Virus record (IMG/VR): IMGVR_UViG_3300034073_001700
Coordinates: 1 to 64,000 of that record
Reading direction: 5' to 3' (one strand)
From: a virus
DNA: 64,000 nt
In this document: one piece after another, positions 9,282 through 58,823 of the stretch
Layout: every line of letters starts with the position of its first letter
How positions within the stretch are numbered: position 1 is the stretch's first letter
Notes under the pieces: model-generated
The model's input: only the letters and a program-made list of their open reading frames with translations
Database searches by the model: none
Told to the model about the DNA's origin: nothing
Position numbers and translations under genes: made by a program

Positions 9282-9908
9282 TTAGTGAATCCAATGTTGT
9301 GGAACCATATACTTATAACCACTCTTAACTAAATGTGCAGTGTGGTGATAAGGTGGTGATGGAGGAAAAACAATTATACTTCCTGCCTTTGGCTTAACTG
9401 CAAAATGATATGATGCAGGATCTGCCTTTTCAAAATCTTCTGATGGAGTTGGTCCTTGTATTGGACCTTTTGGATCTCTAATGGTAAAAGAAATTTCGCC
9501 ACCTTCATAGTCATCATTAAGATACATAACAAAAGAAACTTTTAGCCTTTCATCACCTTCTTGCTGATCAAAGTGTGCCCCCATAAATGTTCCAGCCATA
9601 TACTTTTTAATTGGATATACTGGGAAAAGTTTTGGCTCATCTGTTATTCCCTGTGCTGTTGCATAGTCCCTTGCTACATCATCAAATGCTTTTCTTAGTG
9701 TTTCATAAATATATTTATCTTTTTCGTTAGAACTTGAGTCTAGCGCAATATTCTTGTCAGTTCCATAAACATATGGCTGTCCGCTACACGCCATCCATTC
9801 GCCCCATGGATCTTTGTTGTCATTTTCAATTGCCTCTACAAGTTTTGCAGGGTCCTCAATAACATCTGTGTAGTAGTAAACTTTTTCTTCTAGTATTTCT
9901 TTTTTCAT
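9282..9908 (-). CDS. 2OG-Fe(II) oxygenase, prolyl-hydroxylase-like
   Basis: HFD iron motif, YLNDDYEGGEI, KPKAG, distal His (YHH). Confidence 0.85.
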   Translation of the reverse strand: MKKEILEEKVYYYTDVIEDPAKLVEAIENDNKDPWGEWMACSGQPYVYGTDKNIALDSSSNEKDKYIYETLRKAFDDVARDYATAQGITDEPKLFPVYPIKKYMAGTFMGAHFDQQEGDERLKVSFVMYLNDDYEGGEISFTIRDPKGPIQGPTPSEDFEKADPASYHFAVKPKAGSIIVFPPSPPYHHTAHLVKSGYKYMVPQHWIH

Positions 9909-9917
9909 ATTTCTCCT

Positions 9918-10574
9918 TTAATATTTATTGTGATCATAAAAGCCTTTAACCTTTATGAATCCAACTAAGACGTATCTTATTGGGCCTGCTCCTACATGCC
10001 TAACTCCATGCTCATATTCCTCATTACCTGGAAATATAAGTAGTTCCCCTGGCTTTGGGCGTACATCTAAATTCTTATTTTTAAAAAATAAAGTACCTTC
10101 AGTGTAGTCGTCATTAAGGTAAAGAATAGCAGCATATCTAATAGAAGGATCTGTATGCTGATCTGTATGAGATTTTAACTGTACCCCCTCTTGCATTCTT
10201 TGCAATGTAGCAAAACCAGTTAATTGTAAATCTTTATGATTTATCTCAATAAGTCTGTGCATTCTTGCTTGTAGTTTGCCAGATATGGGATAGTTGCCAA
10301 TGCTAAGATTTTTGTCATCCCAATCTTTTGTAATCTCGTATTTTCCTTCTTTAACTAAATTTTCTACATCATCTCTACCAAACTTTTCTAGGCAAAACCT
10401 GGCAAGACTTGCTCTATATGCTTCAAACCAAACTTCTTCTGGTGTTGCTTCAATAATATCTAAAATTTCCTGCAGTTCATCCTTCGATATAAAATCATGG
10501 ACAACAAGTATTTCTTCTTGAACTATGTCTGTCTTAAAACCAGCATCTTTAAACTCTTGTTCTAGAAATAGCAT
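9918..10574 (-). CDS. 2OG-Fe(II) oxygenase, prolyl-hydroxylase-like
   Basis: HTD, YLNDDYTEG, HGV...RY. Confidence 0.85.
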   Translation of the reverse strand: MLFLEQEFKDAGFKTDIVQEEILVVHDFISKDELQEILDIIEATPEEVWFEAYRASLARFCLEKFGRDDVENLVKEGKYEITKDWDDKNLSIGNYPISGKLQARMHRLIEINHKDLQLTGFATLQRMQEGVQLKSHTDQHTDPSIRYAAILYLNDDYTEGTLFFKNKNLDVRPKPGELLIFPGNEEYEHGVRHVGAGPIRYVLVGFIKVKGFYDHNKY

Positions 10575-10575
10575 A

Positions 10576-11319
10576 TCAATTCTCCACCTTGTATTTATTT
10601 CCTTGTTGATCTATTTTATATCCATTTTTTAACAATTCTTGCCATTCGGCTCTTTCAACCTCTTGCTTGGCCCTTGTTTCTTTCATCTCTTCTGCCCAGG
10701 CATCTCTTAGTTCTTGTGGATACGCATCTTCTTCTCTGTCATCCCAGAAAGAGCCAATAGTATATCTAGTACCGCTTTCTATTAGAGTTACCTCATGCAT
10801 ATTGTTAAACCCGCCATCAAAAGCGGCAAGCATACCTACCTGTGGTTTAATAGTTATATTTTGACTTGGAAATTGTAATAGACCGCCATCAAAGTTATCA
10901 TTTAGGTATAAGAATGCAGCGTATCTACTTCTAGTAAAAGCACCAGAGTTGCCGTGTTCATCTGTGTTGTCTGAATGAATTCTTGCATATGCTCCTGGCT
11001 CCCACTTTTGCGTGTGATATCCAATCTGACAAATTATTTTTGGATCAAGATCGTGAACAGATGCAACTGCATTTATAATTCCTTGCTTTATTTGTGAGAA
11101 TATGTTTGATGGTAAACCTTCGGCAATTACATGTTCATCATTGTCTTGAGGAAGAACAGAAGAATATGATTCATAAAAAGAAATTGGCATCCATTGGATT
11201 GTTTTGAGTTCTGCATGCTTATCTAATACCTTTATAAGTTTTGCAGAGGTTTCTGCATCAATAAAGTTTTCATAAAGAACTATGTCCTTGGTTACTCTAT
11301 TTTTATTTTCTAAATTCAT
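10576..11319 (-). CDS. 2OG-Fe(II) oxygenase, prolyl-hydroxylase-like
   Basis: HSD, YLNDNFDGG, HEV...GTRY. Confidence 0.88.
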   Translation of the reverse strand: MNLENKNRVTKDIVLYENFIDAETSAKLIKVLDKHAELKTIQWMPISFYESYSSVLPQDNDEHVIAEGLPSNIFSQIKQGIINAVASVHDLDPKIICQIGYHTQKWEPGAYARIHSDNTDEHGNSGAFTRSRYAAFLYLNDNFDGGLLQFPSQNITIKPQVGMLAAFDGGFNNMHEVTLIESGTRYTIGSFWDDREEDAYPQELRDAWAEEMKETRAKQEVERAEWQELLKNGYKIDQQGNKYKVEN

Positions 11320-12077
11320 GAATTTCTCCTTATACCATTTTCTGGATCCCAGGCTTTTATTGATTCATCATCTGGAAAAATTCTATAATACTCCTTATTA
11401 AAGTCTGGTTTTACATCACCAGTATGCTCTAAAATTTCCCAGAAGAATGGACAAGTATATCTAATGCCATTTTTAATTTTAGTTACGCCGTGAACGTAGT
11501 TCATATCTCCTGGAAAGAAATATGCGGACCCTCTTTTAGGTTTAAATTGTATTCCTTGGTTTGGGAAATATAACTCTCCACCCTCATAATCGTCATTAAT
11601 ATAAAACAAACTTGCTATATCATAATTTGGAAAATCGTTTGGCGTACCTGCATCTGCACCTTGATGTAGTTCTTTATCTGCATGAGGCATCTGGAATTGT
11701 CCTGGATTCCATTTTACAATTGTTTGTCCTGTAGGCTGAACCTTTACATTAAAAAATTTTTCAATTACTGGTTGTAACTTATTAAATAGGCCAACTATAA
11801 CTGGGACAATATTGGGATCATTCTTATTAAGTGATGGGGCGCTTGCAACTCTATCTTTCCAGTATTCTGCGTCATATATTACTGTACCGTTTTCATTTTT
11901 GTGACTTTCTGTAACGTCCCATATAGTAATACTTCTTGCTGCTTTATCTAAAAAATCTACTTCTTCCTGAGTCATAAAATTTTCTAATTCAACAATATTT
12001 TCTGGACCGTGACCAAAAAATCCAGAGGGTGTGCTTGATGGTTTTCTGAATACTGTTACGGCATCTTCTGGTTTCAT
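11316..12077 (-). CDS. 2OG-Fe(II) oxygenase, prolyl-hydroxylase-like
   Basis: HAD, YINDDYEGGELYF, HGV...GIRY. Confidence 0.88.
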   Translation of the reverse strand: MKPEDAVTVFRKPSSTPSGFFGHGPENIVELENFMTQEEVDFLDKAARSITIWDVTESHKNENGTVIYDAEYWKDRVASAPSLNKNDPNIVPVIVGLFNKLQPVIEKFFNVKVQPTGQTIVKWNPGQFQMPHADKELHQGADAGTPNDFPNYDIASLFYINDDYEGGELYFPNQGIQFKPKRGSAYFFPGDMNYVHGVTKIKNGIRYTCPFFWEILEHTGDVKPDFNKEYYRIFPDDESIKAWDPENGIRRNS

Positions 12078-12085
12078 AATAATAA

Positions 12086-12568
12086 TTATATCACAGGATG
12101 ATAATCCTGAGCCTTTACCTTTATGCCTAAATTATCAAAAAACCTTTCAATATTAAATCTCCAGTTATCTCTTCCAAAAGATGCTCCTATTCTTATACAT
12201 AAAATTTCAAAATCTTCTTCTGGCAGTTTATCTTTAATTTGTAAAAGTGCATTGGTTACATCTATATAATTTTGCCTAACAAAAGATGGGTCCCCTGCCT
12301 GATTTCTTTTAAATACCTTGGTATTAACTTTTCCAGACGGCTCATATAGAGATACTGTTAAATAATTTTTAGCAAAACCAGCATCCTTATACATCTCATA
12401 TCCAGCAACTGCATCTACAACATTATCAAAAGATATTATTGATCTTGCTGGGGATTCTCCGTCTCTTGATACAGCAATAATATAATGAGAAACTTTTCCC
12501 AACTTTGCATTCTGTAAATACTCTTCTATCATATCTTGATGGTTTGGCCTAAGTTCGTTACTCATCAT
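12086..12568 (-). CDS. Hypothetical protein
   Basis: Co-oriented ORF tightly packed in the oxygenase cluster. Confidence 0.7.
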   Translation of the reverse strand: MMSNELRPNHQDMIEEYLQNAKLGKVSHYIIAVSRDGESPARSIISFDNVVDAVAGYEMYKDAGFAKNYLTVSLYEPSGKVNTKVFKRNQAGDPSFVRQNYIDVTNALLQIKDKLPEEDFEILCIRIGASFGRDNWRFNIERFFDNLGIKVKAQDYHPVI

Positions 12569-13287
12569 ATACCCGAATTATCAATAACAGAAAGTTTTAA
12601 TGTCTTTACCTCATGCTGACCTACAGACTTTCCAGTTTCATCAACTGCTTCTCTGTACCAATCAGTCCATTGACCAGAAGAGTTAAGTACTTGTGCTGCT
12701 TCTCCGTAACTTATATTTGCCTTTTCCCTTATTCTATCTGGATCCTTATAAGCAACTATATTAATTACTGTATTGTTTAGTGCGGTTAAGGAAATTGGAA
12801 TAATAGTCGCAACTGGAGTTCCTGCTTTAATTATTGTTTCTTCATTTGCCTTTTTTGCTTTTAGTGCAAGCGGAAGAGGATTATCATAAAAAGATGTACT
12901 AATAAGGTTTGACATTGTTTCAAATTCATCATTAAAATAATTTACAGGATTGATTGTTAAAATACTAACATCTGGGTCTGTTCTAAATACCAGCGATGTG
13001 TTTAAACTAATTGAAGATTGTCCTCTTCCAGAATAAGAGTTATCTGGACTTTTAATTTTTACATGTTGGTCTGTTTGATCATTAATTCCATCCCAGGTAA
13101 AAACTATATCCTTTTTACATGATAGGTACCAGCCAACAACGTTTGCTTGTGTTACTGGAAAACACCTATATGCATGATTTTCAGATGTTGCATCCATCCA
13201 ATCCCTTTTAATCGACATTGGTGTGATGTCAAACTGACAGCCGAACATCTTTTCAACTGTTATGTTGTACATTATTCGTTTTCCCAC
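12565..13287 (-). CDS. DUF6065-like protein
   Basis: KRDWMD...HAYRCFPVTQANVVGW and KAGTPVA motifs; true start probably MYNIT at 13272. Confidence 0.65.
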   Translation of the reverse strand: MGKRIMYNITVEKMFGCQFDITPMSIKRDWMDATSENHAYRCFPVTQANVVGWYLSCKKDIVFTWDGINDQTDQHVKIKSPDNSYSGRGQSSISLNTSLVFRTDPDVSILTINPVNYFNDEFETMSNLISTSFYDNPLPLALKAKKANEETIIKAGTPVATIIPISLTALNNTVINIVAYKDPDRIREKANISYGEAAQVLNSSGQWTDWYREAVDETGKSVGQHEVKTLKLSVIDNSGI

Positions 13288-13955
13288 TTTGGGTCATACA
13301 TATCTGGAGTATGATACTTTTTACTATAATCGAGCATTGTAACAATTGAGTATTTTGTTCCAGAGTTAACTGGCATAGCCTGATGAGGATACATATAGTT
13401 TGATGGAAATATATAAAGATCTCCAGCCTTTGGCTTTATGTTTAATCCTTGTAATCTAAAGTAAAGTTCTCCACCATCGTAATCATCATTAATATATGCC
13501 ACTAGTGAAACTGTACAGTTATACGAATATCCGTGATCATGATGCTCTTTAAAATGTTGACCTGGACCATATTTAATAAAGTTAAAAGACTCCCAATATT
13601 TTAATGGCATAATATTGTAGTCTCTCCTATAATCCTCAACTGCTGGAGCCTGTACATCATATACATCTTGCCAAATACTCTGAAGTAATTTAGAATCATT
13701 GCTTGTATCATGCTCTATATCTGTTTTCTTAAATTTAAAATCGTAGCAGTCACGATAATCTGGCATTAGTTGCTTATACCCAACATAGGCTGGAAGCCAG
13801 TGATATATCTTTCCATCTGATGACAATTCGCCCCAAGGTGCTGGTTCACCCAAAATACCTTCTAGTCTATTAATAATATCTAACTCTGGTTTAATTACAT
13901 TTCTATATACCGTAATACCATTTCCAAGGCTTTCTTTATTAGTCCAAGTTGTCAT
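13272..13955 (-). CDS. 2OG-Fe(II) oxygenase, prolyl-hydroxylase-like
   Basis: HHD, YINDDYDGGELYF, FPSNYMYPH, GTKY. Confidence 0.88.
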   Translation of the reverse strand: MTTWTNKESLGNGITVYRNVIKPELDIINRLEGILGEPAPWGELSSDGKIYHWLPAYVGYKQLMPDYRDCYDFKFKKTDIEHDTSNDSKLLQSIWQDVYDVQAPAVEDYRRDYNIMPLKYWESFNFIKYGPGQHFKEHHDHGYSYNCTVSLVAYINDDYDGGELYFRLQGLNIKPKAGDLYIFPSNYMYPHQAMPVNSGTKYSIVTMLDYSKKYHTPDMYDPKWENE

Positions 13956-13963
13956 TGCTACTC

Positions 13964-14758
13964 CTATTTATACTCTCTTCTTGTCCAAACCTTATCTTTA
14001 TATACCCCGCCATCTGGCTGACGATAAAAGTTTGCGTTATCTACTATTTTAGCATACATCGTTGATGAGTCTAAAATATCAATTTCATGACCCCAGTTTT
14101 CTCTTTTAAAGGGAAGTATTTGTAGATAAGGTGTTCCAGCAGGAATTGTTCCTTCCCACCCATCTATAATAAAGAATGGAAAACTACCCAAAAGTTCTAC
14201 TTTATCTGAATCTACAACACCAGTTGTATTCATAAATGGCAGATCAAACCTATTCATAGGTGTCATAAATAAAGCGCTATATCCTTCTGGAAGTTTTAAT
14301 CCCCAATCTGGCATCCATGCAAAATGATTTTTATAGTGTCCAATGGGATGTTCAAACTGTGGCATTGGAGGCCTTACTGTACAAAAATCTGCGTACATGG
14401 GATTTTCAACCTTTACATCTAAATACCCTGCGCTATTTTTTGTAAATGTTAGGTCACATGGAGTTTTAAATACATACCCAGTAATAAAAGCATCCATGAT
14501 TGCTGGACAGGCTTTCCATGTTGGGATCATTCCGTAGTCATCTGTTGTTCCAGATTTTGGAAAAGGACAAATGCTTGGTGGGGCCTTATAGTATTCACCA
14601 TTTGGCATTTTAGCAAATCTGTCTGCATCCTTATACCATTGAGGCATTTCTTTTTGTGTTGGAACTGGTACAGATTTACTTTCTTTTGTTAGCCATGGTC
14701 TGTATGACTTAAATACTATAGGGTTATACTCAATATCCACCCTTATGTCCCAACTCAT
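13964..14758 (-). CDS. DUF6065-related protein commonly found with phage 2OG oxygenases
   Basis: PQWYK, TWKACPAIMDAFITGY, PEGYSALF, AGTPYLQILPFKRE. Confidence 0.6.
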   Translation of the reverse strand: MSWDIRVDIEYNPIVFKSYRPWLTKESKSVPVPTQKEMPQWYKDADRFAKMPNGEYYKAPPSICPFPKSGTTDDYGMIPTWKACPAIMDAFITGYVFKTPCDLTFTKNSAGYLDVKVENPMYADFCTVRPPMPQFEHPIGHYKNHFAWMPDWGLKLPEGYSALFMTPMNRFDLPFMNTTGVVDSDKVELLGSFPFFIIDGWEGTIPAGTPYLQILPFKRENWGHEIDILDSSTMYAKIVDNANFYRQPDGGVYKDKVWTRREYK

Positions 14759-15446
14759 TAATATCAGTCATGATTACGACACAATACTTTGTACCGCTCT
14801 TCATCGGAAGAGACGCATGCTCATAAATGTAGTTAGATGGGAAGACGGCGATATCTCCTACTTTTGGAGTAAGTGTATAACCGTCAAGTCTTGGAAATTG
14901 TATCTCTCCACCTTCATAATCATCGTTTATATAGATTACTGCTGAAACTGTGCAGTTATATGCTGGTCCATGATCTGCATGTATGTTAAAGTGCTTTCCT
15001 TCACCTTCATACTTAACAAAGTTAAATGCTTCATAATAAATAACATTAATGCCCCAATAACGTGCATAATCATCAATACAATATTTTAACTTTTGATAAA
15101 TTTCTTCATGTAAGTCTATTAACTCTGCATTAAGATCATCTCGTGGTCCAAGATTTTCTTGCTTGTACTTAAAATCTACACAGTCCCTTGCTCTCTTTAT
15201 TGGGGTTGTAGAGTTAGTTACCTGTGCCTCTGACCAACTGTATCTTTTTGTACCGTCTAAATTTGATTCAAGAGTTTTAATATATCTATCTGCATCTTCT
15301 TTATTAAATACATTTCTATATATATTTAATCCAAGTCCAGGATTTTCAACAACTATGCCATTAGGCAAAGTTTTTGCAGGATACCTGTTTGATGCTGTTT
15401 CTGATCTATCTTTTGTAAACCAAGGATTTTGATTTTCATCGTACAT
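14730..15446 (-). CDS. 2OG-Fe(II) oxygenase, prolyl-hydroxylase-like
   Basis: HAD, YINDDYEGGEI, FPSNYIYEH, GTKY; paralog of 13272..13955 and 28523..29125. Confidence 0.88.
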   Translation of the reverse strand: MYDENQNPWFTKDRSETASNRYPAKTLPNGIVVENPGLGLNIYRNVFNKEDADRYIKTLESNLDGTKRYSWSEAQVTNSTTPIKRARDCVDFKYKQENLGPRDDLNAELIDLHEEIYQKLKYCIDDYARYWGINVIYYEAFNFVKYEGEGKHFNIHADHGPAYNCTVSAVIYINDDYEGGEIQFPRLDGYTLTPKVGDIAVFPSNYIYEHASLPMKSGTKYCVVIMTDINELGHKGGY

Positions 15447-15458
15447 GCTGTCTCTTTT

Positions 15459-15905
15459 CTATTGTTCTACAGCGACAAATCTTGTTCCATCCCAGCCATA
15501 AGTTTCTCCAACGAATACTATTTGGTCATTTGGAATTTTTACAAGCATAACATCGCTACTAAATGCTGCAGCAAATTTTAATGAATTAGGGCTGTCGTCA
15601 CCAACTATTACACTTGCCACTATTTTATTATCAGAAATAAAAGAATATTTTTTCTTATCTAACCAAAAAGACTCATCCGCTCTTGTTGCTTCGTCCACTT
15701 GATGTCCTCCAGAAAAAGAAGTGCCATTCCAGACTGCTCCATTTGAGGCATCATATTTATATTGTGTTGTCTCCATTCCAATAATTGGAAGACCACTATC
15801 TAAGGCATCGTCTATTAATTTTGCTTTTTCTGGCATAGAGTCATAATTAAATAATGAAAAAACATCCCAAGAGGTATCACCACTTTTTACTAATGCTGCG
15901 TACAT
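15459..15905 (-). CDS. Small protein with two copies of a WxWDGxxF-ending domain, possible fibre-assembly chaperone
   Basis: GAVWNGTSF and YGWDGTRF; similar to 29369..29575. Confidence 0.55.
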   Translation of the reverse strand: MYAALVKSGDTSWDVFSLFNYDSMPEKAKLIDDALDSGLPIIGMETTQYKYDASNGAVWNGTSFSGGHQVDEATRADESFWLDKKKYSFISDNKIVASVIVGDDSPNSLKFAAAFSSDVMLVKIPNDQIVFVGETYGWDGTRFVAVEQ

Positions 15906-15943
15906 ATATTCTCCTTTATACTTATCAGTATATCATAACTTTT

Positions 15944-15976
15944 AATGAGGGTACATTTTTTAGATATACCCTCATT
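15944..15976. terminator. Inverted repeat just after the PFF-protein stop codon
   Basis: AATGAGGGTA...TACCCTCATT. Confidence 0.45.
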
Positions 15977-15981
15977 ATTTT

Positions 15982-17043
15982 TTAGCAACAACAGTTACTG
16001 CAAGGGCATCGCCAGCAATATGTTGCAGAACACTGACATTGTGCTCCTGGTGTTGGTGCTGGTGCAAAAGATGGGAAGAATGGTGGGAAGAATGGGAAGA
16101 ATGGGAAGAACGGGAAGTACGGTGGGAAGAACGGGAAGAACGGGAAGAATGGGAAGAAAGGTGGGAAGAACGGGAAGAATGGGAAGAATGGGAAGAAAGG
16201 TGGGAAGAACGGGAAGAATGGGAAGAATGGGAAGAAAGGTGGGAAGAATGGGAAGAATGGGAAGAATGGGAAGAACGGTGGGAAGAATGGGAAGAATGGG
16301 AAGTATGGAAAGAATGGAGGGAAGAATGGGAAAAACGGAAAGAATGGGAAGAATGGCGGGAAGAATGGGAAGAACGGCGGGGTAGTTGTAACAGATCCAG
16401 TTGTAGATCCATCAGATGTACCATTAGCATTAATAGCAACAACTGTATAAGTTTGAGATCCTGGAGATGCTCCAGGGTCATTAGCATCATATGATGTTGC
16501 TGAGGCTGAAATACCAGTATAACTTGATCCATCTGAACCAGTAATAGTAAATGATGTTAATGCAGAGCCACCATTTTGATTTCCAGTATAAGCAGACCAA
16601 GTAATTCTATTTGTATTGGCAGATAACGCTGAAGCGCTAACATTTTGTGGGTTTAATGGTTTTGTAGTTACCGTAACTGACCCTGATACGGTATTAGGGG
16701 TTTTTGCTGATCCAGAAGCATTCTTTGGGGTAATGGTAAAAGTATAAGATACTCCAGAGGCTAAACCTTCAAAAGTATAACTTGTTGATGTTGTATTTGC
16801 AGTATAGGTTGAAGGGGTGGTGGTTATGTCATAACTTGTTGCTGGTGGAGATGTTTCTGGCAAGGACCAAGATAAACTAACTGCTCCACCAGTTCCTGCT
16901 GCAGTAGCAGAAGAAGTTTTTGCAGTTTCCAAATATGGTCGATTTGAACCCACATTTGTTGCTGTTAAATTAGTAACATTAAGTGGTTCCAAAAAGTTAT
17001 CTTGTGCTGAGGACTTAATACCCCTTTTCTTTGCTTGTGCCAT
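15982..17043 (-). CDS. Fibronectin type III protein with (Pro-Phe-Phe)n tract and Cys-rich C-terminus
   Basis: Two FN3-like units (VSLSW...YTFEGL..GVSYTFTIT; ITW...YTVVAINANG), about 105 aa PFF repeat, CQCSATYCWRCPCSNCCC end; SD GGAG upstream. Confidence 0.8.
   Translation of the reverse strand: MAQAKKRGIKSSAQDNFLEPLNVTNLTATNVGSNRPYLETAKTSSATAAGTGGAVSLSWSLPETSPPATSYDITTTPSTYTANTTSTSYTFEGLASGVSYTFTITPKNASGSAKTPNTVSGSVTVTTKPLNPQNVSASALSANTNRITWSAYTGNQNGGSALTSFTITGSDGSSYTGISASATSYDANDPGASPGSQTYTVVAINANGTSDGSTTGSVTTTPPFFPFFPPFFPFFPFFPFFPPFFPYFPFFPFFPPFFPFFPFFPFFPPFFPFFPFFPFFPPFFPFFPFFPFFPPFFPFFPFFPFFPPYFPFFPFFPFFPPFFPSFAPAPTPGAQCQCSATYCWRCPCSNCCC
16066..16381. repeat. Coding tandem repeat, 9-bp unit (GGGAAGAAY on +) with 39-bp higher-order period
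   Basis: Directly visible; encodes PPFF-PFF-PFF-PFF units on the minus strand with synonymous variation at Pro codons. Confidence 0.95.
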
Positions 17044-17073
17044 CTTGCTCTCCTTTGTCTATACTGAATTCTG

Positions 17074-19347
17074 TTATGCTGATAGGTCGCCCATTACAAT
17101 CCATTTATTTGTTCCACGCTTGAACAATGTAACAGATGAATACTGCGCTCTTAACTTAAGACCAGGGGTTCCATTTACAGTAACGGTTCCATCTGCTCCT
17201 GCAATTGTCACATTTCCAGTATTCATTCTAACTATATCGATAGAGGTTCCAACTGGGAATGCTGTTGTTGCATTGGTTGGAATATTAATAGTAATATCTG
17301 TTCCAGACTCATTATTACATTCTATTAAAGTATCTCTATAATCTAGATTACTTAAAGTAGTGGTTGCTGTTAATGCATTAGTATTAGTTTCACCATAAAT
17401 ATATGTTATGGATGGAACGCCTTGTTTTGTCTGTGTCCCATCTGTGAAAACTACTCCTGCTGTTGTTAGATTATTTACGGCCAGGTCATCGAGAGAACCT
17501 TGTCCAAAGTTTACAGTTGTTGCTGGTTCGTCTGCAACATCCTTAAATAGTTTCCATGTACTATCAGAAACATCTCTTACGATACCTGCATGTTTTGCAG
17601 ATCCATCGTTATATGCTACTACAAGACCAAGGTCTACTGTATTTGCTGCATTTTCATGTGCAAGTTGGACCATGTTATCTTCAATTGTAATAGATGTTGC
17701 GCTGGCACTAAAGGATGTACCGTTTACAGTTAAGTTTCCGTCAACTGTTAGGTTTTGATCAATTTCTACTGAGCCTGTGAATGTTGCTCCAGATAGTGAT
17801 GCCTTTGCATCAAGTGCTGTTTGTGTAGCAGTAGAAACTGGCTTGTCAGCATCAGAGGTATTATCTACGTTTCCAAGGCCAACCATGCCCTTTGTAATAC
17901 CAGAAACCGTGCCTGTGAATGTTGGGTCTGCAAGAGGAGCCTTTGCAGCAAGATCTGATGTAAGTCCAGAAATCTTTGACTGTGCAATTGCTGCTGATGC
18001 ATTAATGTCAGCATCTACAATTGTTCCGTCTGCAATCTTTCCAGATGTAACTGCTCCATCTTCAATTTTAGCAGTGGTTACAGAATCACCAGCAAGTTTA
18101 TCTGCGGTAACTGCAGAATTAACAATCTTTTCTGTTGAAACAGTATTATCTGTTGGTGTTCTTGTATCAGATAAACGAGCATCATCTGTAAGAACAAGGT
18201 TTGCTGTATCTGCAATTCCATGTACGCTTGTTGTATCTGCTCTGTGAGTTTCAATGTCTGCTGTGGTTGCTAGAAGTGATGTATCTGCAATACCATGTAT
18301 ATTTAAAGTTATGTTATGTGCAGTTATCGCATCATCTGCGTATGATTTTGTGGCAAGTTGGCCAACATCTGCAATTCCATGAACGTTGGTAGTCAAAGCA
18401 TTGTGTGTGCCTACTTCTCCTGTTGCAGCCACGCTAGATGAGTTATCTGCGTAGTCTTTTGTTGCAAGTTCTCCGACATCTGCAATACCATGTACGTTTG
18501 TGGTTAGCAAATTATGTGTTGATACCTCTCCTGATGCAGCGCTACTAGATGTATTGTCTACATATTGTTTTGTTGCTGCATGAGTAGCATCTGTTGGTGG
18601 TCCAACAAGTTCTAAATAACCTGTCATAATGTCGCCAGACTTTGAAACCTTAGTTGCTAATGATGCAACAACATCATTGGCAAAGTTTGCATCATCATTT
18701 AAGGCTGCTGCCAATTCATTGAGTGTATCTAATGCTTCTGGGGCTCCATTAATTAATGCAGCAATTTTTGATTGAACGAATTGTGTTGTTGCAATCTTAG
18801 TAGAGTTATCTGCAAGAATTGGTGTTGTGGCAAAAGAAAAACTTCCAAGATCTGCACCTTCAAATGTTTTATTAGTTAAAGTTTGTGTTCCATCTAATGT
18901 AACTACTGTTGAGTCAATGTCAAATTGTTCTGTACCTGAATTCCACTCTATTCCAGCACCAGCGAGTGCTGACTGGTCTACTGTTGCTCCTGATACTGCA
19001 TCAATAACATATTGCTGAGTAGCAAGGTCTGCTGTATCATCTATACCGTGCACATTTGTTGTTGCATCTGTGTGTGCTGAGAGATTTGTAGAAACTGTTG
19101 TTATAAAGGCAGGGTCATCGCCAAGGGCAGCAGCAAGTTCATTTAGTGTATCAAGAACTTCTGGTGCACCGTCTAGTAGTGCATTAGCGTCTACATAATA
19201 ATTAAGGGCAGACCACTGAGATGATCCATTACCAATCTTAAATTTACCAGTATCAGTCTCAAATCCAATTTCTCCTGCTGCTAAGACTGGGTTTACTTCT
19301 GTCCACTGTGCTGCAGTTCCTCTGCGCTGTTGCATTCTTGTTGCCAT
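17074..19347 (-). CDS. Tail fibre-like protein
   Basis: N-terminal RRGTAAQW...LAAGEIGFETDTGKFKIGNG (hyaluronidase-N/Mtd-N-like), two APExLDTLNELAAAL repeats, several TTNVHGIAD repeats. Confidence 0.8.
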   Translation of the reverse strand: MATRMQQRRGTAAQWTEVNPVLAAGEIGFETDTGKFKIGNGSSQWSALNYYVDANALLDGAPEVLDTLNELAAALGDDPAFITTVSTNLSAHTDATTNVHGIDDTADLATQQYVIDAVSGATVDQSALAGAGIEWNSGTEQFDIDSTVVTLDGTQTLTNKTFEGADLGSFSFATTPILADNSTKIATTQFVQSKIAALINGAPEALDTLNELAAALNDDANFANDVVASLATKVSKSGDIMTGYLELVGPPTDATHAATKQYVDNTSSSAASGEVSTHNLLTTNVHGIADVGELATKDYADNSSSVAATGEVGTHNALTTNVHGIADVGQLATKSYADDAITAHNITLNIHGIADTSLLATTADIETHRADTTSVHGIADTANLVLTDDARLSDTRTPTDNTVSTEKIVNSAVTADKLAGDSVTTAKIEDGAVTSGKIADGTIVDADINASAAIAQSKISGLTSDLAAKAPLADPTFTGTVSGITKGMVGLGNVDNTSDADKPVSTATQTALDAKASLSGATFTGSVEIDQNLTVDGNLTVNGTSFSASATSITIEDNMVQLAHENAANTVDLGLVVAYNDGSAKHAGIVRDVSDSTWKLFKDVADEPATTVNFGQGSLDDLAVNNLTTAGVVFTDGTQTKQGVPSITYIYGETNTNALTATTTLSNLDYRDTLIECNNESGTDITINIPTNATTAFPVGTSIDIVRMNTGNVTIAGADGTVTVNGTPGLKLRAQYSSVTLFKRGTNKWIVMGDLSA

Positions 19348-19405
19348 TTATCTCTCCTTGTGGTATTTCTACCATTTTATTTCTGTGCCAATTATAACAT
19401 CAATT

Positions 19406-19861
19406 TTAATTGAAATTATCTACTACACTACCACCGTCAAGAACTAGTGTCCATTCTGTGGTACTTGGACCACCACCATCTACTGGTGATCCTTGCGGAT
19501 CATTGAAACTACCGCCTTCAGTGAAAGTAGTAACAATTAATCCTGTTCCATCAATTGCAGTATCATGAATGTGCTGTGGCAAATTCAAAGTATCATCAAT
19601 TGTTGCCATTGTTAACCAAGAGCCCTCGTAATATACATTGACTCTTGATGTTAATGTATCAAACCACATATCACCATTATCTGGTGATTCGGGAGCGGTA
19701 GACCCTACTGGTAAACCGCCTACCAGGCCATCTACATAAGATTTTGTAACAGCATGACCATCCAATGTTGGAGTACCAACTGTTACAGCACCTCCGAAAC
19801 TACCGCCATTAGTGACGACTAGTCCGTTTTTGACCTTGAAATCTTTATCTACTGTTGACAA
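19406..19861 (-). CDS. Virion structural protein (fibre-associated)
   Basis: KDFKVKNGL start shared with 19892..21709; APESPDNGDMWFD motif. Confidence 0.65.
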   Translation of the reverse strand: MSTVDKDFKVKNGLVVTNGGSFGGAVTVGTPTLDGHAVTKSYVDGLVGGLPVGSTAPESPDNGDMWFDTLTSRVNVYYEGSWLTMATIDDTLNLPQHIHDTAIDGTGLIVTTFTEGGSFNDPQGSPVDGGGPSTTEWTLVLDGGSVVDNFN

Positions 19862-19891
19862 GATCTACCACTCCCTCTTTTATTTATTTTG

Positions 19892-21709
19892 TTATGCTAA
19901 AAGTGTTCCAACAACTGTAACTGTTGAGTTATTGTTGTCAGTTTCTACACGAAGACGAACATCGGTTCCACTAACATCTGCTGAAACAGATCCAAGTGCA
20001 CCATTTGTTCCTACCATCGCATATTCTGTAATTGCAATATTGTCAGATGTATCAAGTGTAAGAACTACCTTTGATACTTCTGTATGTGAGCCATTTGCAA
20101 TCTTTACAAGGAATTCAGCAGAGCGATAGTCTGCCTTAGCCCATGATACTGCTGTGTTTGTGCTTGCGGTTGCTACAGTTGCAGATGCTGCAACCTGCTT
20201 TGCTACAGATGCAATTTCTACTGCTGGGAAGTCAGGTGTGACTGCCTCAAGAGCAGATACTGCACGAGCATCTGTAAAGTAAAGGTTTGTTGTACCTTCA
20301 AGAAGATCATCAGTTGTTGAGTCTGCAACACCGTTTTCTGCGGTAATTGTAAGACCATTTCCGTCACCAGTGATCTGAATATTTGTTAATGTAGCACCTG
20401 TTAGTAGTGATGCTGCATCACCTTGAGCACGAGCAGTTGTGTAGTAAAGGTTTGAACCTTCTTCAATATCAGATGTTGAAAGCAAATCAATTGCGTTGTT
20501 TGTATATGTTGCCGCATTTGATTCTGCTGTATTTGCATATCCTTGTGCTGTTGAAAGAGCAGTTGTGATTTCGCCATCTGTATAAGAGTTAGCAGAAGTA
20601 ATAGCATCTGTCTCTGCTTGATCAGCGTAAGCCTCATATGCTGCTGTAATAGCAATCTCACGGCCATCTGTATAAGAATTTGCTGATGTTACAGCATCAG
20701 ATTCTGCAGTATCAACATAAAGTTTATTTGCAGCGTCTCCATTTGCTGTTGGTTCTGCAAGGCTTGTTACCTTGTTTGTACCACCAAAATCAAGGTTACC
20801 AGTCATGCTGTCTCCAGCCTTGGCTACCTTTTCACCAATTGATGCAGTTACTGTTGTTACGAAGTTAGCATCATCACCAATCGCTGCAGCAAGTTCATTC
20901 AATGTATCAAGAACTTCTGGAGCAGAATCTACAAGATTTGATACTGCTGTATCAACATAAGATTTTGTTGCAGCATCTTGGTTTGCAGCAGGTTCGGCAA
21001 GGCCAGAAACCTTATATCCGCCAGCAGCAAGATCGCTGCCAAGAGTTTTGTTTGAAAGTGTTTGTACATCAGTTGTACCAACAACATTTCCAGTTACTCC
21101 ATGAACTCCAGTTGTTAGGTCATTATGATCGTCAACTGCCCCATCAGCATAGTTTTGGTATGCAGTTGTAATTGCTGTTTCTCTTCCATCTGTATAAGAG
21201 TTAGCAGAAGTAATAGCATCTGCTTCTGCAGCATCTGCATATGCCTGATAAGCGGTAGTAATTGCTGTCTCACGACCATCTGTGTATGCTTCTGCTGCAT
21301 CAATTGCTTCGCCCTTTGCTGTAGCAACTTCTGCATCTGTTGCAAAAGAGCCATCAATTGTTGCTGTAATGCTTACGTTTGCTGTACCGTCAAAAGATAC
21401 AGAACCTGTTACATCTCCAGCCAAAGAAATTGTACGAGCAGTCTCAAGTGCTGTTGCTGTATCTGCATTACCAGTTACATCACCAACAAGGTCTGCTGTT
21501 ACTGTACCCGCAGCAAAATCGCCATTAGCATCACGCTTTACGACTGTATCTGCAGTATTGTTTGAGGTGGCTGTTCCACCGATTAAACCAATAATGTAAT
21601 TATCATCATCTGGTTTCTTTGTAAGAATGTCATAATTATTGATGGTACCTGTTGTGCCTTCAACAATCAGACCATTCTTTACCTTAAAGTCTTTTGTGAC
21701 TGTTGCCAT
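19892..21709 (-). CDS. Tail fibre-like protein
   Basis: GNADTATALETARTISLAGDVTGSVSFDG, APEVLDTLNELAAAIGDD, EGSNLYYT repeats. Confidence 0.8.
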   Translation of the reverse strand: MATVTKDFKVKNGLIVEGTTGTINNYDILTKKPDDDNYIIGLIGGTATSNNTADTVVKRDANGDFAAGTVTADLVGDVTGNADTATALETARTISLAGDVTGSVSFDGTANVSITATIDGSFATDAEVATAKGEAIDAAEAYTDGRETAITTAYQAYADAAEADAITSANSYTDGRETAITTAYQNYADGAVDDHNDLTTGVHGVTGNVVGTTDVQTLSNKTLGSDLAAGGYKVSGLAEPAANQDAATKSYVDTAVSNLVDSAPEVLDTLNELAAAIGDDANFVTTVTASIGEKVAKAGDSMTGNLDFGGTNKVTSLAEPTANGDAANKLYVDTAESDAVTSANSYTDGREIAITAAYEAYADQAETDAITSANSYTDGEITTALSTAQGYANTAESNAATYTNNAIDLLSTSDIEEGSNLYYTTARAQGDAASLLTGATLTNIQITGDGNGLTITAENGVADSTTDDLLEGTTNLYFTDARAVSALEAVTPDFPAVEIASVAKQVAASATVATASTNTAVSWAKADYRSAEFLVKIANGSHTEVSKVVLTLDTSDNIAITEYAMVGTNGALGSVSADVSGTDVRLRVETDNNNSTVTVVGTLLA

Positions 21710-21727
21710 TTTTATTATCTCCTTGTG

Positions 21728-22174
21728 TTACGCCTTAAGTCCAATTCGTGCATAACGAACTGTGACTGGCTTAATTGCAGGATCTGGAGTAACCGTTAAG
21801 GATACTGTATTTCCAGCCCTGGAGACGCTAATGGTGCCAATATTCCCATCGTTGTCTATTGTTCCGTATTCGCTGACATTTACATTTGTACCGTCAACTA
21901 ATACGGTCAACTCTGTTGCATAAAACTTATTGTCTCCCGCAGTTACCTTAGCGATTGAAACAATATACTTGATCATACGCCACTCTGTGGCATCAAAATT
22001 ATCAATTACTGTTGGATTCTCAATACCAGTAATTGTATTTTCATTATTGCCCATTGAGCCTAAATCGGTAGAACGAGCAGAGGCGGAATCAATTAAATCT
22101 TCGTAATCTTCCTGTGTAGGACGATCACCAGTCTCAAATTTTGTTTTTAGCGTAGGTATTGATATCTTAGCCAT
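21728..22174 (-). CDS. Virion structural protein
   Basis: LKTKFETGDRPTQEDYEDLIDS motif; C-terminal domain resembles that of 19892..21709. Confidence 0.65.
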   Translation of the reverse strand: MAKISIPTLKTKFETGDRPTQEDYEDLIDSASARSTDLGSMGNNENTITGIENPTVIDNFDATEWRMIKYIVSIAKVTAGDNKFYATELTVLVDGTNVNVSEYGTIDNDGNIGTISVSRAGNTVSLTVTPDPAIKPVTVRYARIGLKA

Positions 22175-29610: not shown

Positions 29611-31800
29611 CTATGTAAGACACATACTTCCTGTCCATGAGCCTCCGCTTGCATAGCATTCCCAACATGTACAGTTTCCTCCGCATCCAAAGTCAAAACA
29701 GTCAATAACTGGTGCTGCTACTGGTGTTGGGGCAGCAGGGCTAGGTGCTGCAGGGCTAGGCGCTACTGGTGTAGGCGCAACTGGAGTAGGTGCTACTGGA
29801 GTAGGTGCTACTGGAGTAGGTGCTACTGGTGTAGGCGCTACTGGACTTGGTGCTGCTGCTGGAGAAGGTGTAAAGAATGGGAAGTATGGGAATGATGGTG
29901 GGAAGAATGGTGGTGCTACAGGGCTAGGTGCTACAGGTGAAGGAGCGACTGGGCTTGGTGCTACTGGGCTTGGTGCTACTGGTGCAGGCGCTGGTTCGTA
30001 GCAACTTGTCCATGTACTGGAAAGTATTGAACCAGTATAGTCTGGTTGATCATAGCAAACTGTATAATTTGCGAAGCCAGAAGAGCATGAGAATGTGCCA
30101 TCTTCTTGAACTTCATTTCTGCAATAACTTTGAACTGGTGCAGGTGCAGGGGCAGGGGCAGGTGCTGGGGTTGGTGCTGGGGTTGGTGTTGGAGCAACTG
30201 CTACAGGAGTGGGTGCTACAGGAGTAGGTGCTACAGGAGTAGGTGCTGCTGGTGCAGGTGCTGGAGTTGGAGTGCTTCCACAATTCTGTGGTGTTGTGTA
30301 AACTCCGCCCTGTAAAGTATTTCCTGGTTCATCATTTTGACAAGCAGTCGTTAGTCCTGTTACTGCTGCTGATTCACTAGAGTATGAACCACTTACTGCT
30401 GTTCCATTAACACAACAAGCATAATAAGTTGTTAATCCTACTGGTGCAGGAGAAGCAGGTGCAGGAACAGGTGCTGCTGGTGCTGGTACAGGTATTGGTG
30501 CTTCACAGGTTATTGAAGGAACAGTTCCAGTACCACTTTGAGTATTGGTTAGAGTTGTTCCACATTGTGCGTCTAAGTCTAAGAATGCTAATTGTTCTGT
30601 TTCTCCAGCGCCAGTTAATTGAACGCCATCACAGCATCCTGTATACCACCATCCCTCTGACTGTACTGGTGCTGGTGCTGGTGCAGGCGCTGGTGCTGGC
30701 GCAGGCGCAGGAGTAGGAATAGGAGTAGGTGCTGGGGTTGGTGACCCAGAACACGTTAATGTTGGAATAGTACCATCAACTCCGCTTTGTTGATCTGTAA
30801 CAGTTCCAGAACACTGACTATTCATTAAGTTAAATGCTGTTGTAAAGTCAACTGTGCTTGTTCCAGTTACTTGTGATCCAGTGTCACTGCAGCAACCAGT
30901 GTACCAATATGTTGTAGAGGGTGAGGTTGGTACTGGGGTAATAACTGGTGCTGGTGTTGGCGTGGGTGCTGGTGCTGGTGCAGGTGTTGGTGTTGGAGTA
31001 GGGGTTGGAGTAGGGGTTGGGACTGGGACAGGTGTTGTAACTGGTGCAGGCGCTACAGGAGCAGGCGCTACAGGAGCAGGTGCTACTGGGGCTGGTGCAA
31101 TAGGTGCTGGCGCAGGTGTGGGAGCAGGTGTAGGTGCAGGAGCAGGAGTTGGTGCAGGTGCAGGTGCTGGAGCAATACCTTCATTTATATCTCCATAAAC
31201 AACCCATGTATTTGTATCAATTTTTAATACTGTTACTTTTCCATACTGCTCATCTATTTTTGCAGAAGTGCCTTTTGAATTAACCGTAACTCCATCTTCT
31301 CCAGAAATTGTTACATCTCCAGATCCAAGTCTTACTATCTCTACCTTATATCCATTATCAATTGCTTCCAAAGAATTTAGTGGTATTGTAATTATTGTTT
31401 CTGATGTGTTATCTACGGTTATTACTTTACCTGCATCGGATGCAGTGATTGTATAGTCAGATAACTTTGCCTGTATTAAAGAATATCCATTTATGTACTT
31501 CCATTTAGTCCCATCATAATATTGGACTTGATTTATTACTGTACCGCCACCAGATTGTTGCCTAACAAAACAAACTGCACCGTTAGACGGGGAAGGTAAT
31601 GCTAAATCACGTTCTTCTGGTGTTTGAAAATTATTTATTCCAGCCCTAGACTTTAAGACCTCTTCAAATGTGACTGGTGATGAAAATGTTTGGCTTGCTG
31701 TCCAGGTGTAAGAAGCATTTGTATTAATAGCACCACTAATTGCATACCAAGTACCGTCTTTATAAACATATGCGACTTTTCCATCTGTATTAATTGCCAT
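29611..31800 (-). CDS. Fibre-like protein with long Pro/Ala/Thr repeats and Cys-rich modules
   Basis: N-terminal fibre-type domain, (PA)n/(PT)n/(PVAPT)n tracts, three Y..CC..C..C modules, PPFFPPSFPYFPFF segment, Cys-rich tail. Confidence 0.8.
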   Translation of the reverse strand: MAINTDGKVAYVYKDGTWYAISGAINTNASYTWTASQTFSSPVTFEEVLKSRAGINNFQTPEERDLALPSPSNGAVCFVRQQSGGGTVINQVQYYDGTKWKYINGYSLIQAKLSDYTITASDAGKVITVDNTSETIITIPLNSLEAIDNGYKVEIVRLGSGDVTISGEDGVTVNSKGTSAKIDEQYGKVTVLKIDTNTWVVYGDINEGIAPAPAPAPTPAPAPTPAPTPAPAPIAPAPVAPAPVAPAPVAPAPVTTPVPVPTPTPTPTPTPTPAPAPAPTPTPAPVITPVPTSPSTTYWYTGCCSDTGSQVTGTSTVDFTTAFNLMNSQCSGTVTDQQSGVDGTIPTLTCSGSPTPAPTPIPTPAPAPAPAPAPAPAPVQSEGWWYTGCCDGVQLTGAGETEQLAFLDLDAQCGTTLTNTQSGTGTVPSITCEAPIPVPAPAAPVPAPASPAPVGLTTYYACCVNGTAVSGSYSSESAAVTGLTTACQNDEPGNTLQGGVYTTPQNCGSTPTPAPAPAAPTPVAPTPVAPTPVAVAPTPTPAPTPAPAPAPAPAPVQSYCRNEVQEDGTFSCSSGFANYTVCYDQPDYTGSILSSTWTSCYEPAPAPVAPSPVAPSPVAPSPVAPSPVAPPFFPPSFPYFPFFTPSPAAAPSPVAPTPVAPTPVAPTPVAPTPVAPTPVAPSPAAPSPAAPTPVAAPVIDCFDFGCGGNCTCWECYASGGSWTGSMCLT

Positions 31801-58650: not shown

Positions 58651-58670
58651 CAGTGATACAATAGAATAAT

Positions 58671-58743: not shown

Positions 58744-58747
58744 CGAA

Positions 58748-58821: not shown

Positions 58822-58823
58822 CA

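Follow-up and report, generated by a model that had tools for sequence, protein, structure and literature searches.

The window, a 64,000-nucleotide stretch of viral DNA, encodes on its minus strand (15982..17043) a 353-aa protein that joins a pair of FN3 domains to a tract of Pro-Phe-Phe repeats and a cysteine-rich C-terminal tail; all features located below lie on the same strand. The protein belongs to a large family from uncultured phages, and comparison of its members argues that this family is real and under selection. In every locus examined the gene ends the tail-fiber block, and in the window it is followed by an array of 2OG-Fe(II) oxygenase and DUF6065 genes. We propose, with confidence evenly balanced, that the product is a fiber-associated accessory protein made up of a docking peptide, an FN3 pair, a (Pro-Phe-Phe)n stalk that would be hydroxylated by the adjacent oxygenases, and an exchangeable cap.

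The best-conserved portion of the family protein is its 220-aa FN3 front (alignments A1 and A3). The first FN3 domain (aa 24-108, 16720..16974) matches Pfam fn3 (PF00041) over aa 50-113 with an E value of 6.3e-10 and 39.6 bits against a cut-off of 25, and AF2 models it as a beta-sandwich. A second, FN3-like domain (aa 136-205, 16429..16638) is modeled in the same way, with strands in both domains at pLDDT >90, and is conserved in A1 and A3. A preliminary description of this DNA had spoken of an FN3 protein; that assignment holds, with two FN3 domains in place of one. The named structural neighbors of the pair outside the family are mostly minor tail proteins of actinophages, and FN3 domains on phages are said, after Fraser et al. 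2006, to be typically surface-exposed decorations. At the N terminus lies a conserved peptide (aa 1-21, 16981..17043) that is Lys-rich and then carries an AQDNFLEP motif. K5, G8, F17, L18 and P20 are invariant or nearly so in A1 and A3, and AF2 predicts a short helix at aa 14-17 within a segment of pLDDT 54-71. This is probably a docking peptide. Prediction of a complex between the C-terminal domain of the upstream 757-aa fiber (A5, aa 60-200) and the N-terminal 125 aa returned a score of 0.00, that is, no answer.

Downstream of the FN3 pair is the aromatic-proline tract (aa 222-326, 16066..16380), which consists of seven 13-aa units of the PPFF-PFF-PFF-PFF type and two flanking 7-aa units. 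Its 105 residues comprise 61 Phe, 41 Pro, 2 Tyr, 1 Ser and no Gly; peptides of the tract can be written (PPFFPFFPFFPFF)n. At the DNA level, TRF found a period of 39 nt (7.8 copies, 91% matches, score 482). The Pro codons are mixed (26 CCA, 11 CCG and 4 CCT), and pairwise comparison of the seven 13-aa units gave 73 synonymous versus 12 non-synonymous codon differences. Substitutions are confined to F to Y (2) and F to S (1). These data bear out the preliminary description, which had read in this ORF a PFF tract of about 105 residues with a 13-aa superperiod and had taken the synonymous Pro-codon variation and the rare F to Y or S changes as signs of selection on the protein. The Cys cluster that it placed at the C terminus is also confirmed: a short Ala/Pro/Thr linker (aa 327-335, 16039..16065) leads into an 18-aa tail (15985..16038) with 8 Cys and a YCW motif, both plain from the translation. 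AF2 models the tract as coil at low confidence (pLDDT 49-57). It is not collagen-like, because Gly does not occur at each third residue. Separately, a supply of phage tRNAs for the tract was rejected because none of the five phage tRNAs (Met, Asn, Asp, Glu and Thr) is specific for Pro or Phe.

The tract is neither an artefact nor a chance reading: hundreds of independent contigs carry homologs in which an aromatic-proline tract stays in the same frame, with the FN3 pair on one side and a conserved C-terminal module on the other. Applied to the 120 proteins among the matches listed, a strict regular expression finds it in frame in 109. The reads, examined as Logan unitigs from four runs, three of which may stem from the source sample, cover the inner array by short pieces alone: in 4/4 runs the unitigs are interrupted within 16110-16249, and no listed piece extends across the array. 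On both sides the flanking sequence continues into the repeat, and in-frame variants with 3-nt indels are present. The copy number is that of the assembly, which the unitigs neither confirm nor refute. Across 196 unique family proteins, a set pooled from the 120 among the matches listed, 77 proteins from loci and that of the window, tract length ranges from 0 to 184 aa. Unit boundaries vary as well: periods of 7, 10 or 13 aa occur, as do PPHF, PPGFF and PMF variants, and in some relatives FGFSPFGV repeats replace the PFF tract.

The family is sizeable. Of 8000 scored candidate proteins, 371 match at E<=1e-3, and at least 467 IMG/VR loci were confirmed out of 599 candidate stretches, with the best 80 per scan kept for detailed comparison; a locus scan with P0089 as query gave 1 locus. 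An attempt to size the family by a profile search (A3) of a representative library was dropped: it returned 40,531 matches at E<=1e-3, and the 150 listed are all 1,084-7,602 aa long with 10-63 matched stretches each, which we read as multi-FN3 proteins. Deposited phage records, a set from which near-identical entries may be missing, gave no megablast match to 13900-19400, and protein tblastn of 50,697 such records found no homolog under BLAST masking of the tract. A search outside subscription journals found no published description of an FN3-(PFF)n phage family. Among genome contigs, 5 of 97 stretches were confirmed, all on MAG contigs of mixed taxonomy, which for that reason provide neither a host call nor an isolate prophage. 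Their labels are Bacteroidetes, Chitinophagaceae, Actinomycetota, Methylococcus and an actinobacterium. The phage host is probably an actinobacterium.

The far end of the protein is exchangeable. Among the 196 unique proteins, 94 end in a Hint/BIL domain, 62 in a Cys-rich tail, and 40 in neither, the last having nothing there or a short tail that is acidic in some. Cap type differs even between close relatives in a quick tree. The window protein is of the Cys-tailed class, with 27 residues after the tract and no match to the Hint profile. Within this class the Cys count is even in 52 of 62 members, and YCW[QR] occurs in 11 of 62. A 148-aa protein of no known family, p148 (15459..15905 in the window), accompanies Cys-tailed members only: among unique proteins with at least 1 kb of downstream sequence, it lies directly downstream of 34/55 Cys-tailed members, 0/50 with Hint and 0/26 with neither. 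For p148, curated Pfam and PHROG families gave no match, the Atlas gave none at >=0.9 or at structural TM >=0.5, and no relation was found to p148b, the other 148-aa gene. The Hint caps carried by half of the family, the restriction of p148 to Cys tails and the dUTPase-like fold of the DUF6065 proteins, treated below, had escaped the preliminary description.

Homology of the alternative cap to Hint domains was evident from a profile of 12 sequences (A2), which matches the BIL domain 2lwy from Clostridium thermocellum at E 1.7e-8, the gp41-1 intein at 3e-7 and the Pho RadA intein at 3e-5; single-sequence Pfam search gave 27.5 bits, under the cut-off of 35.8. In hmmalign columns, 65 of the 94 domains have Cys as the position 1 nucleophile and the other 29 have Ser. 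At the Thr-x-x-His of block B, 93 of 94 have Ser or Thr, and the His is kept in 45, replaced by Gln in 47 and other or a gap in 2. The likeness to the C. thermocellum BIL domain thus concerns the C-terminal domain of about 150 aa found in relatives, not the window protein, and it has limits: the phage domain is terminal and lacks a C-extein, block B has Gln in 47/94, and the HN end is present in 19/94. Because of the block-B Gln, self-cleavage is not assured in half of the Hint members, and the missing C-extein leaves only cleavage or transfer at the N-terminal junction. Peptidase_S74, a self-cleaving C-terminal intramolecular chaperone of phage tailspikes and fibers that uses a serine-lysine dyad, offers an analogy only, as a C-terminal domain of a fiber protein that helps maturation and then removes itself; its fold and chemistry are unrelated to Hint, and the 5 Hint-bearing homologs scanned had no Pfam match to it.

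Gene order places the family among fibers. In nearly all loci with upstream sequence the order is p148b, fiber, p151, fiber and then this gene. The fiber immediately upstream in the window (757 aa, 17074..19347) matches Mtd_N and tail-fiber PHROGs. Its C-terminal domain recurs in a 729-aa protein of the same genome (aa 601-755 against aa 45-205, 34% identity, E 1e-12), where it is fused to Pro-rich linkers of the PA, PT and PVAPS types with one PFF-like segment and a similar Cys tail. This second Pro-rich protein sits about 0.5 kb upstream of another P4H-like gene.

On the other side of the gene, beyond p148, lies the array. It begins with OX1 (14730..15446), a P4H-like 2OG-Fe(II) oxygenase (Pfam 2OG-FeII_Oxy_3, PF13640, 8.2e-11) whose best sequence matches in the PDB are the B. 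anthracis P4H 5hv0/3itq (E 5e-4), followed by LH3 and P3H1. D7a (13964..14758, phrog_7084), the 2OG-Fe(II) oxygenase OX2 (13272..13955, phrog_61, 6.7e-27) and D7b (12565..13287, Pfam DUF6065 1.2e-27, phrog_7084) come next, and a variable outer portion (9282..12568) holds p160, which has no family, and OX3, OX4, OX5 and OX6, with phrog_61 matches at 11316-12077, 10576-11319, 9918-10574 and 9282-9908. In total, 9282-15446 contains six 2OG-Fe(II) oxygenases, OX1 and five further phrog_61 genes. The HxD...H...K pattern is present in OX1 and OX2, and OX4 has no clear HxD...H at the usual position. The DUF6065 genes between the oxygenases are, by predicted structure, proteins of a dUTPase-like fold and not oxygenases: for D7a (AF2 pLDDT 85.9) the top 10 VIA-align hits are all dUTPases (Z 9.4-8.0), and Foldseek against the PDB gave nothing at E<=1e-3. 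C84 of D7a is invariant in 25 sequences (alignment A4). Array gene order and ordered paralogue groups recur in related loci. Scanned against PHROGs or Pfam, all ORFs of 100 aa or longer within 9282-15905 prove to be oxygenases, DUF6065 proteins or without family, and no halogenase, NRPS or similar gene was found there.

The presence of this array tracks the composition of the tract. Using ORFs of at least 230 aa with the N-terminal family motif on the + strand and merging identical proteins, as for the p148 counts, we compiled 111 unique full-length proteins for which the RNR gene was reached or at least 6 kb of downstream sequence was available; genes truncated by a contig end, such as L018, L022, L040 and L079, were left out. 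Array genes were counted before RNR, since another oxygenase lies after it. All 101 loci with PFF-type Pro-rich tracts carry at least one oxygenase and at least one DUF6065 gene (oxygenase median 7, range 2-10; DUF6065 median 2). By contrast, 0/8 loci with Pro-poor FxFxP or FGFSPFGV tracts have an oxygenase, 4 having DUF6065 alone and 4 neither. The 2 remaining loci, one with a frameshifted PFF tract and one with a (PPGFFx)n tract, carry both. In the quick tree the array-less Pro-poor loci (7 rows) form two clades, each separately supported (100*). Because most loci are relatives with conserved synteny, the coupling amounts to two, perhaps three, independent evolutionary contrasts. These comparisons suggest that the Pro-rich tract is the likeliest natural target of the adjacent P4H-like enzymes, which we regard as probable. 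The structural or adhesive polymer linked to the downstream oxygenases that the preliminary description had put forward is thus strengthened by fiber-block position and by comparative coupling; the hydroxylation of Phe that it included found no support.

In our model, the N-terminal peptide would dock the protein to the tail-fiber apparatus, and the non-globular (Pro-Phe-Phe)n stalk could change length readily through in-frame slippage. The far end would bear the exchangeable cap, here an 8-Cys knot of a disulfide or metal type; in relatives, a Hint/BIL cap with a Cys or Ser nucleophile may cut itself off at the stalk end. The stalk would be the substrate of a core of two oxygenases resembling collagen-type prolyl hydroxylases, each followed by a DUF6065 protein of predicted dUTPase fold, with further oxygenase paralogues following the core. 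Once hydroxylated, this very hydrophobic polymer would become stiffer and more soluble, a Hyp/Phe rod or an adhesive whisker that serves adsorption to the host. The 729-aa protein, with a P4H-like neighbor of its own, supports hydroxylation of the stalk. The known substrates of P4H enzymes, namely X-Pro-Gly, poly-Pro and PAPK-type repeats, weaken it.

A viral precedent for such an enzyme-substrate pair is found in the chlorovirus PBCV-1, for which the primary paper on the prolyl 4-hydroxylase is reportedly that of Eriksson et al. 1999. According to a review (PMC3634087), the PBCV-1 P4H hydroxylates Pro-Ala-Pro-Lys repeats of the same virus, so that there, too, one virus encodes a P4H-type 2OG oxygenase together with proteins that have short Pro-containing tandem repeats. 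OX1 falls into the same Pfam family, 2OG-FeII_Oxy_3. The phage system differs in that the repeat is Pro-Phe-Phe, the host is bacterial, hydroxylation is suggested by gene coupling, and 2-10 paralogous enzymes stand in an array with DUF6065 proteins between them.

We also considered that the protein is structural and the array unrelated to it, making or modifying a small molecule or host proteins, with the tract an unmodified hydrophobic or flexible spacer. We think this unlikely. A precedent comes from the Synechococcus phage Syn9, whose 10 tandem, non-identical classical 2OG-Fe(II) dioxygenases and dUTPase-fold protein with a conserved Cys are, by Iyer, Abhiman, de Souza and Aravind 2010 (PMC2938197), ascribed to secondary metabolism, a small-molecule role that also weakens the case for stalk hydroxylation. 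The likeness lies in the tandem oxygenases and in the predicted fold and invariant Cys of D7a. Absence of the family from the 50,697 deposited phage records means that arrays exist without it and have other substrates elsewhere. DUF6065 homologs occur in 49 haloarchaeal virus records, and in the one neighborhood inspected, that of HRTV-8, no oxygenase is annotated beside the homolog. Moreover, what looks like functional coupling can arise from synteny conserved in a single phage lineage. Against these points, the array comes and goes with the Pro content of the tract (101/101 versus 0/8) while fibers and RNR stay, and it is lost in two separately supported clades. The solved proteins closest in sequence to the enzymes have peptidyl Pro or Lys as substrates, and a second Pro-rich fiber protein of the same genome has its own P4H-like neighbor. 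Finally, the Syn9 array has a JmjC-type member and two Trp halogenases (PMC2938197); the window array (9282-15905) has neither, nor any NRPS or similar gene, and a candidate protein substrate stands immediately upstream of it.

An improbable alternative makes the tract a device that penetrates membrane or envelope, or an ejected protein, rather than an external whisker. A 105-residue extended chain would by arithmetic measure about 30 nm if PPII, enough to cross the envelope of a Gram-positive cell. The tract is also extremely hydrophobic (61 Phe of 105) and variable in length, and a self-removing Hint cap or a Cys cap could hold it inert until use. However, a transmembrane helix is excluded by the Pro at every third residue, the Pro-poor variants retain their aromatics and are not obviously membrane-like, phage FN3 domains are reportedly surface-exposed, and the gene is grouped with fibers and not with tape-measure or ejection genes. 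Still further down the scale, and very hard to credit, is the RiPP-like multi-core precursor raised in the preliminary description, with the FN3 domains as carrier or leader, and with PFF or PPFF units being cut out, hydroxylated and perhaps also cyclised. Cyclolinopeptide A has PPFF as its core (PMC9266943, PMC9182219), and identical repeated units beside tailoring-type enzymes fit such a precursor. The family data do not support that claim: the best-conserved part is the 220-aa front that would be the leader, unit boundaries are not conserved, tract length falls as low as 0 aa, FGFSPFGV repeats can take its place, the gene is located in the fiber block, and the neighbors scanned (9282-22174) include no protease, macrocyclase, RRE or exporter gene. 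A non-coding or mis-assembled minisatellite with a fortuitous ORF has negligible probability, for although three long ORFs read through the array in a different frame or along the opposite strand and no listed unitig piece spans it, the P/F frame alone joins the conserved FN3 front to the conserved tail, hundreds of homologs keep the tract in frame, and synonymous variation dominates.

Returning to the fiber-associated, hydroxylated stalk, we can tentatively, and with somewhat less than even confidence, take the model a step further. The family may represent a natural covalent (Hyp/Pro-Phe-Phe)n polymer on the fibers of freshwater-type phages, tailored by an ordered line of P4H-like and DUF6065 proteins and interchangeably capped, either by a Hint domain that removes itself or by a Cys knot that has a 148-aa helper of its own. 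Hydroxyproline-rich structural proteins include plant extensins, mussel foot proteins and collagen. The tract would resemble them in having Pro-rich repeats with aromatics and in properties that depend on hydroxylation, and it differs from collagen in lacking Gly at every third residue. Synthetic Pro-Phe-Phe and its Hyp-Phe-Phe counterpart differ in being free tripeptides in crystals, in place of the covalent polymer encoded here.

Few unexplained genes of aquatic phages are as common as those for tandem 2OG-Fe(II) oxygenases. With a conserved candidate substrate encoded beside the oxygenases, the function of such an array becomes directly testable, as a shift of +16 Da. If the polymer reading is true, the abundant and hitherto unexplained 2OG-oxygenase arrays of aquatic phages would have in the tract the first of their natural substrates to be identified, and the tract would constitute a structural protein repeat of a new class, akin to collagen and extensin but aromatic. 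The terminal Hint domain of these phages, in half of whose members the canonical block-B His is missing, is of interest for protein-ligation chemistry. For the phages themselves, the family shows the ends of what would be adsorption organelles being swapped.

The gene at 15982..17043 (minus strand) encodes a 353-aa protein whose Lys-rich N-terminal peptide leads into a motif; K5, G8, F17, L18 and P20 are invariant or nearly so in family-wide alignments. AlphaFold2, run with a 30-row alignment, predicts, with pLDDT above 90, two beta-sandwich domains whose strands span aa 24-108 and 136-205, and domain 1 matches Pfam fn3 at 39.6 bits (cut-off 25). The same model predicts no regular structure in aa 222-353, where pLDDT falls from 57 to 40. 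Here lies the aromatic-proline tract (aa 222-326; window 16066-16380, minus strand), 105 residues comprising 61 Phe, 41 Pro, 2 Tyr and 1 Ser, arranged as seven 13-aa units between two 7-aa units. After the tract come 9 aa of Ala/Pro/Thr linker and a final stretch of 18 aa containing 8 Cys. The preliminary description had proposed an FN3 protein with a (PFF)n tract of 13-aa superperiod, closed by a Cys cluster and varying as if under selection on the protein, and each of these points held. TRF finds a 39-nt period with 7.8 copies in the present assembly and 91% matches, and pairwise codon differences among the units are 73 synonymous versus 12 non-synonymous. Phe is encoded by TTC at 57 of 61 positions in the tract and by TTT at 4 of 4 elsewhere in the gene, a bias that could come from selection on decoding or from slippage homogenising the units. 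G+C content is 49% in the tract versus 37% in the genome. The remaining long ORFs crossing the array are by-products of the repeat.

The protein belongs to a large family. Of 8000 candidates scored in a word-seeded search, 371 qualified as members at E<=1e-3, and a scan of IMG/VR confirmed at least 467 of 599 candidate stretches. No homolog was found in deposited phage records, only five MAG contigs (of mixed taxonomy) carry one, and the only public name of family members is "Fibronectin type III [uncultured Caudovirales phage]". We found no paper on the PFF repeat or the protein family. We compared 196 unique proteins: 120 among the matches listed, those encoded in the related loci, and the window protein. 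Their tracts range from 0 to 184 aa and are built from PFF/PPFF, PYF, PPHF, PPGFF or PMF motifs. The C-terminus is a domain of ~150 aa in 94 proteins and a Cys-rich tail in 62 (with an even number of Cys in 52 of these); 40 have neither cap, some ending in a short acidic tail. When the first 200 aa are placed on a quick tree, proteins with the ~150-aa domain stand beside Cys-tailed close relatives with support of 97 and 96, so the C-terminal end is a swappable module.

Several related loci hold variants of this layout. In L116 and L117 (also L015), a 313-aa ORF upstream of p148b, a 148-aa gene that precedes the fibres, contains two PFF tracts with a (PT)n linker between them and a Cys tail at its end, so that PFF tracts and ordinary Pro/Thr linkers are interchangeable in one chain. 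In L134, L135 and L138 the family query also matches much longer ORFs (909-1021 aa) that lie upstream of p148b. One member (L067:3393-4139) is frameshifted within the tract and continues in a Leu/Ser/Pro frame to an early stop; it could be a genuine pseudogene, a variant produced by slippage or a mistake of assembly.

By its sequence, the ~150-aa domain is a Hint/BIL domain. A profile built from 12 domains matches the solved bacterial intein-like domain 2lwy (E 1.7e-8) as well as mini-inteins, while single-sequence Pfam matches fall short of the cut-off. The first residue past the tract is Cys or Ser in 94 of 94 (65 Cys, 29 Ser). Block B has Ser or Thr in 93 of 94, together with His in 45 and Gln in 47. 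The block-B histidine is usually regarded as essential in inteins. All 47 Gln-type domains keep Cys at position 1; 41 of them have no His-Asn/Gln end, three end in HN, two in HQ and one in V. The other subclasses are Ser1/His, ending in FD or YD (29 domains), and Cys1/His, ending in HN (16 domains). The Cys tail has a correlate of its own. Among 131 unique proteins, 34 of 55 Cys-tailed members have the 148-aa gene p148 (15459-15905 in the window) immediately downstream, compared with 0 of 50 Hint-capped members and 0 of 26 with neither cap. We found no recognisable family for p148, and infer that it helps the Cys cap or acts as its partner.

In nearly all loci with adequate flanks the gene order is p148b, fibre, p151, fibre, PFF gene, (p148), an oxygenase/DUF6065 array, RNR and a large protein. 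In the window, the array runs from 14730 down to 9282 as OX1, D7a, OX2, D7b, p160, OX3, OX4, OX5 and OX6, where OX denotes 2OG-Fe(II) oxygenases and D7 DUF6065-type proteins. OX1 is a 2OG-FeII_Oxy_3 protein whose closest solved relatives in sequence are Bacillus anthracis prolyl 4-hydroxylase, lysyl hydroxylase LH3 and prolyl 3-hydroxylase 1. The HxD...H...K/R signature is at its usual place in OX1, OX2, OX3, OX5 and OX6, and is not clear there in OX4. D7b (12565-13287) matches DUF6065 in Pfam. D7a (13964-14758) has a confidently predicted fold (pLDDT 85.9), and dUTPases take all ten top places among its structural matches (Z 9.4-8.0). DUF6065 proteins have a predicted dUTPase-like fold with one invariant Cys. 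Homologs in deposited viruses are confined to 49 records, all haloarchaeal tailed viruses. In Halorubrum tailed phage 8 (HRTV-8, gene 36), the one neighbourhood inspected, the DUF6065 gene has the tail/baseplate block on one side and RNR on the other, with no annotated oxygenase nearby. Among L035/L037/L102/L104, L059/L155, L042, L145 and L150, some loci have an extra oxygenase/DUF6065 set upstream of the fibres and others a second fibre and PFF-family gene beyond the array, indicating that the module was duplicated or moved as a unit.

The presence of this array goes with a Pro-rich tract. Our comparison covered 111 unique full-length proteins whose downstream sequence extends to RNR or for 6 kb or more. 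Where the tract is Pro-rich, of PFF type and 30 aa or longer, OX and D7 genes both occur before RNR without exception (101 of 101; OX median 7, range 2-10; D7 median 2, range 2-4). Two of the 10 others, with a frameshifted PFF tract and a (PPGFFx)n tract, both Pro-rich, also keep OX and D7. By contrast, none of the eight loci with Pro-poor aromatic tracts (FxFxP, PYSFT or FGFSPFGV repeats) has an OX gene before RNR; four have one D7 gene and four have none. These loci retain the fibres, RNR and a single oxygenase beyond RNR. Pro-poor loci account for seven rows of the quick tree and fall into two clades, each with its own support of 100, providing two, perhaps three, independent contrasts. Such contrasts are suggestive, not proof. 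The array may serve a substrate other than the tract, as Iyer et al. (PMC2938197) proposed for the Syn9 array, although a coupling that depends on the Pro content of the tract argues against this. The link to the downstream oxygenases drawn in the preliminary description stood as an association, with hydroxylation itself a proposal. A role of the tract in envelope penetration is possible, though unlikely. No accessory gene for the suggested RiPP-like multi-core precursor was found among the neighbours scanned (9282-22174), and the conservation of the FN3 front and the fluid make-up of the units contradict that reading.

An artefactual array is excluded, as homologs conserve the tract, placing its existence beyond doubt. 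The virus record is complete (120,142 bp, with terminal repeats) and holds a single family copy. Four public runs contain the region, all as short-read unitigs: three possibly derive from the source sample, one represents another sample of that study, and one of the four belongs to a different study. Unitigs enter the array from both flanks, but the middle (16110-16249) is represented only by short, collapsed pieces, with 3-nt in-frame indel variants, so the unit number of the present assembly is provisional.

The genome supplies a second case of a Pro-rich protein close to an oxygenase-type gene, a protein of 729 aa (29611-31800). Its N-terminal, fibre-tip-like domain is a paralogue of the domain that ends the 757-aa upstream tail fibre (17074..19347, minus strand; 34% identity, E 1e-12). 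It also has long PA/PT/PVAPS linkers, one short PFF-like segment and three Cys modules, with a Cys tail resembling some in the PFF family. Some 0.5 kb downstream are genes for a P4H-like protein and for a sugar epimerase.

The host is probably an actinobacterium, since the virus record carries a WhiB-family gene outside the window (record positions 73047-73220, minus strand; 45.9 bits), and this family is linked to actinobacteria and the phages that infect them. The window also holds, clustered at 58577-63227, tRNA genes for five amino acids (Met, Asn, Asp, Glu, Thr).

Most simply, the PFF protein is a fibre-associated appendage. It would start with a docking peptide and two FN3 domains that act as spacers, continue as a long aromatic-proline stalk, non-globular and drifting in length through slippage, and finish in a cap. 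The caps would be alternative endings for a very sticky chain, which some members would close with a Cys knot, others with a Hint domain and some with an acidic tail. The Hint cap might remove itself or pass the C-terminus of the chain to a nucleophile; tailspikes carry self-cleaving C-terminal chaperone domains, which offer an analogue by analogy only. The core enzymes OX1 and OX2 would hydroxylate stalk prolines with the D7 proteins as partners, and the outer OX paralogues would contribute additional modifications or ones specific to certain positions. By extrapolation, hydroxylation could plausibly stiffen the stalk or make it adhesive.
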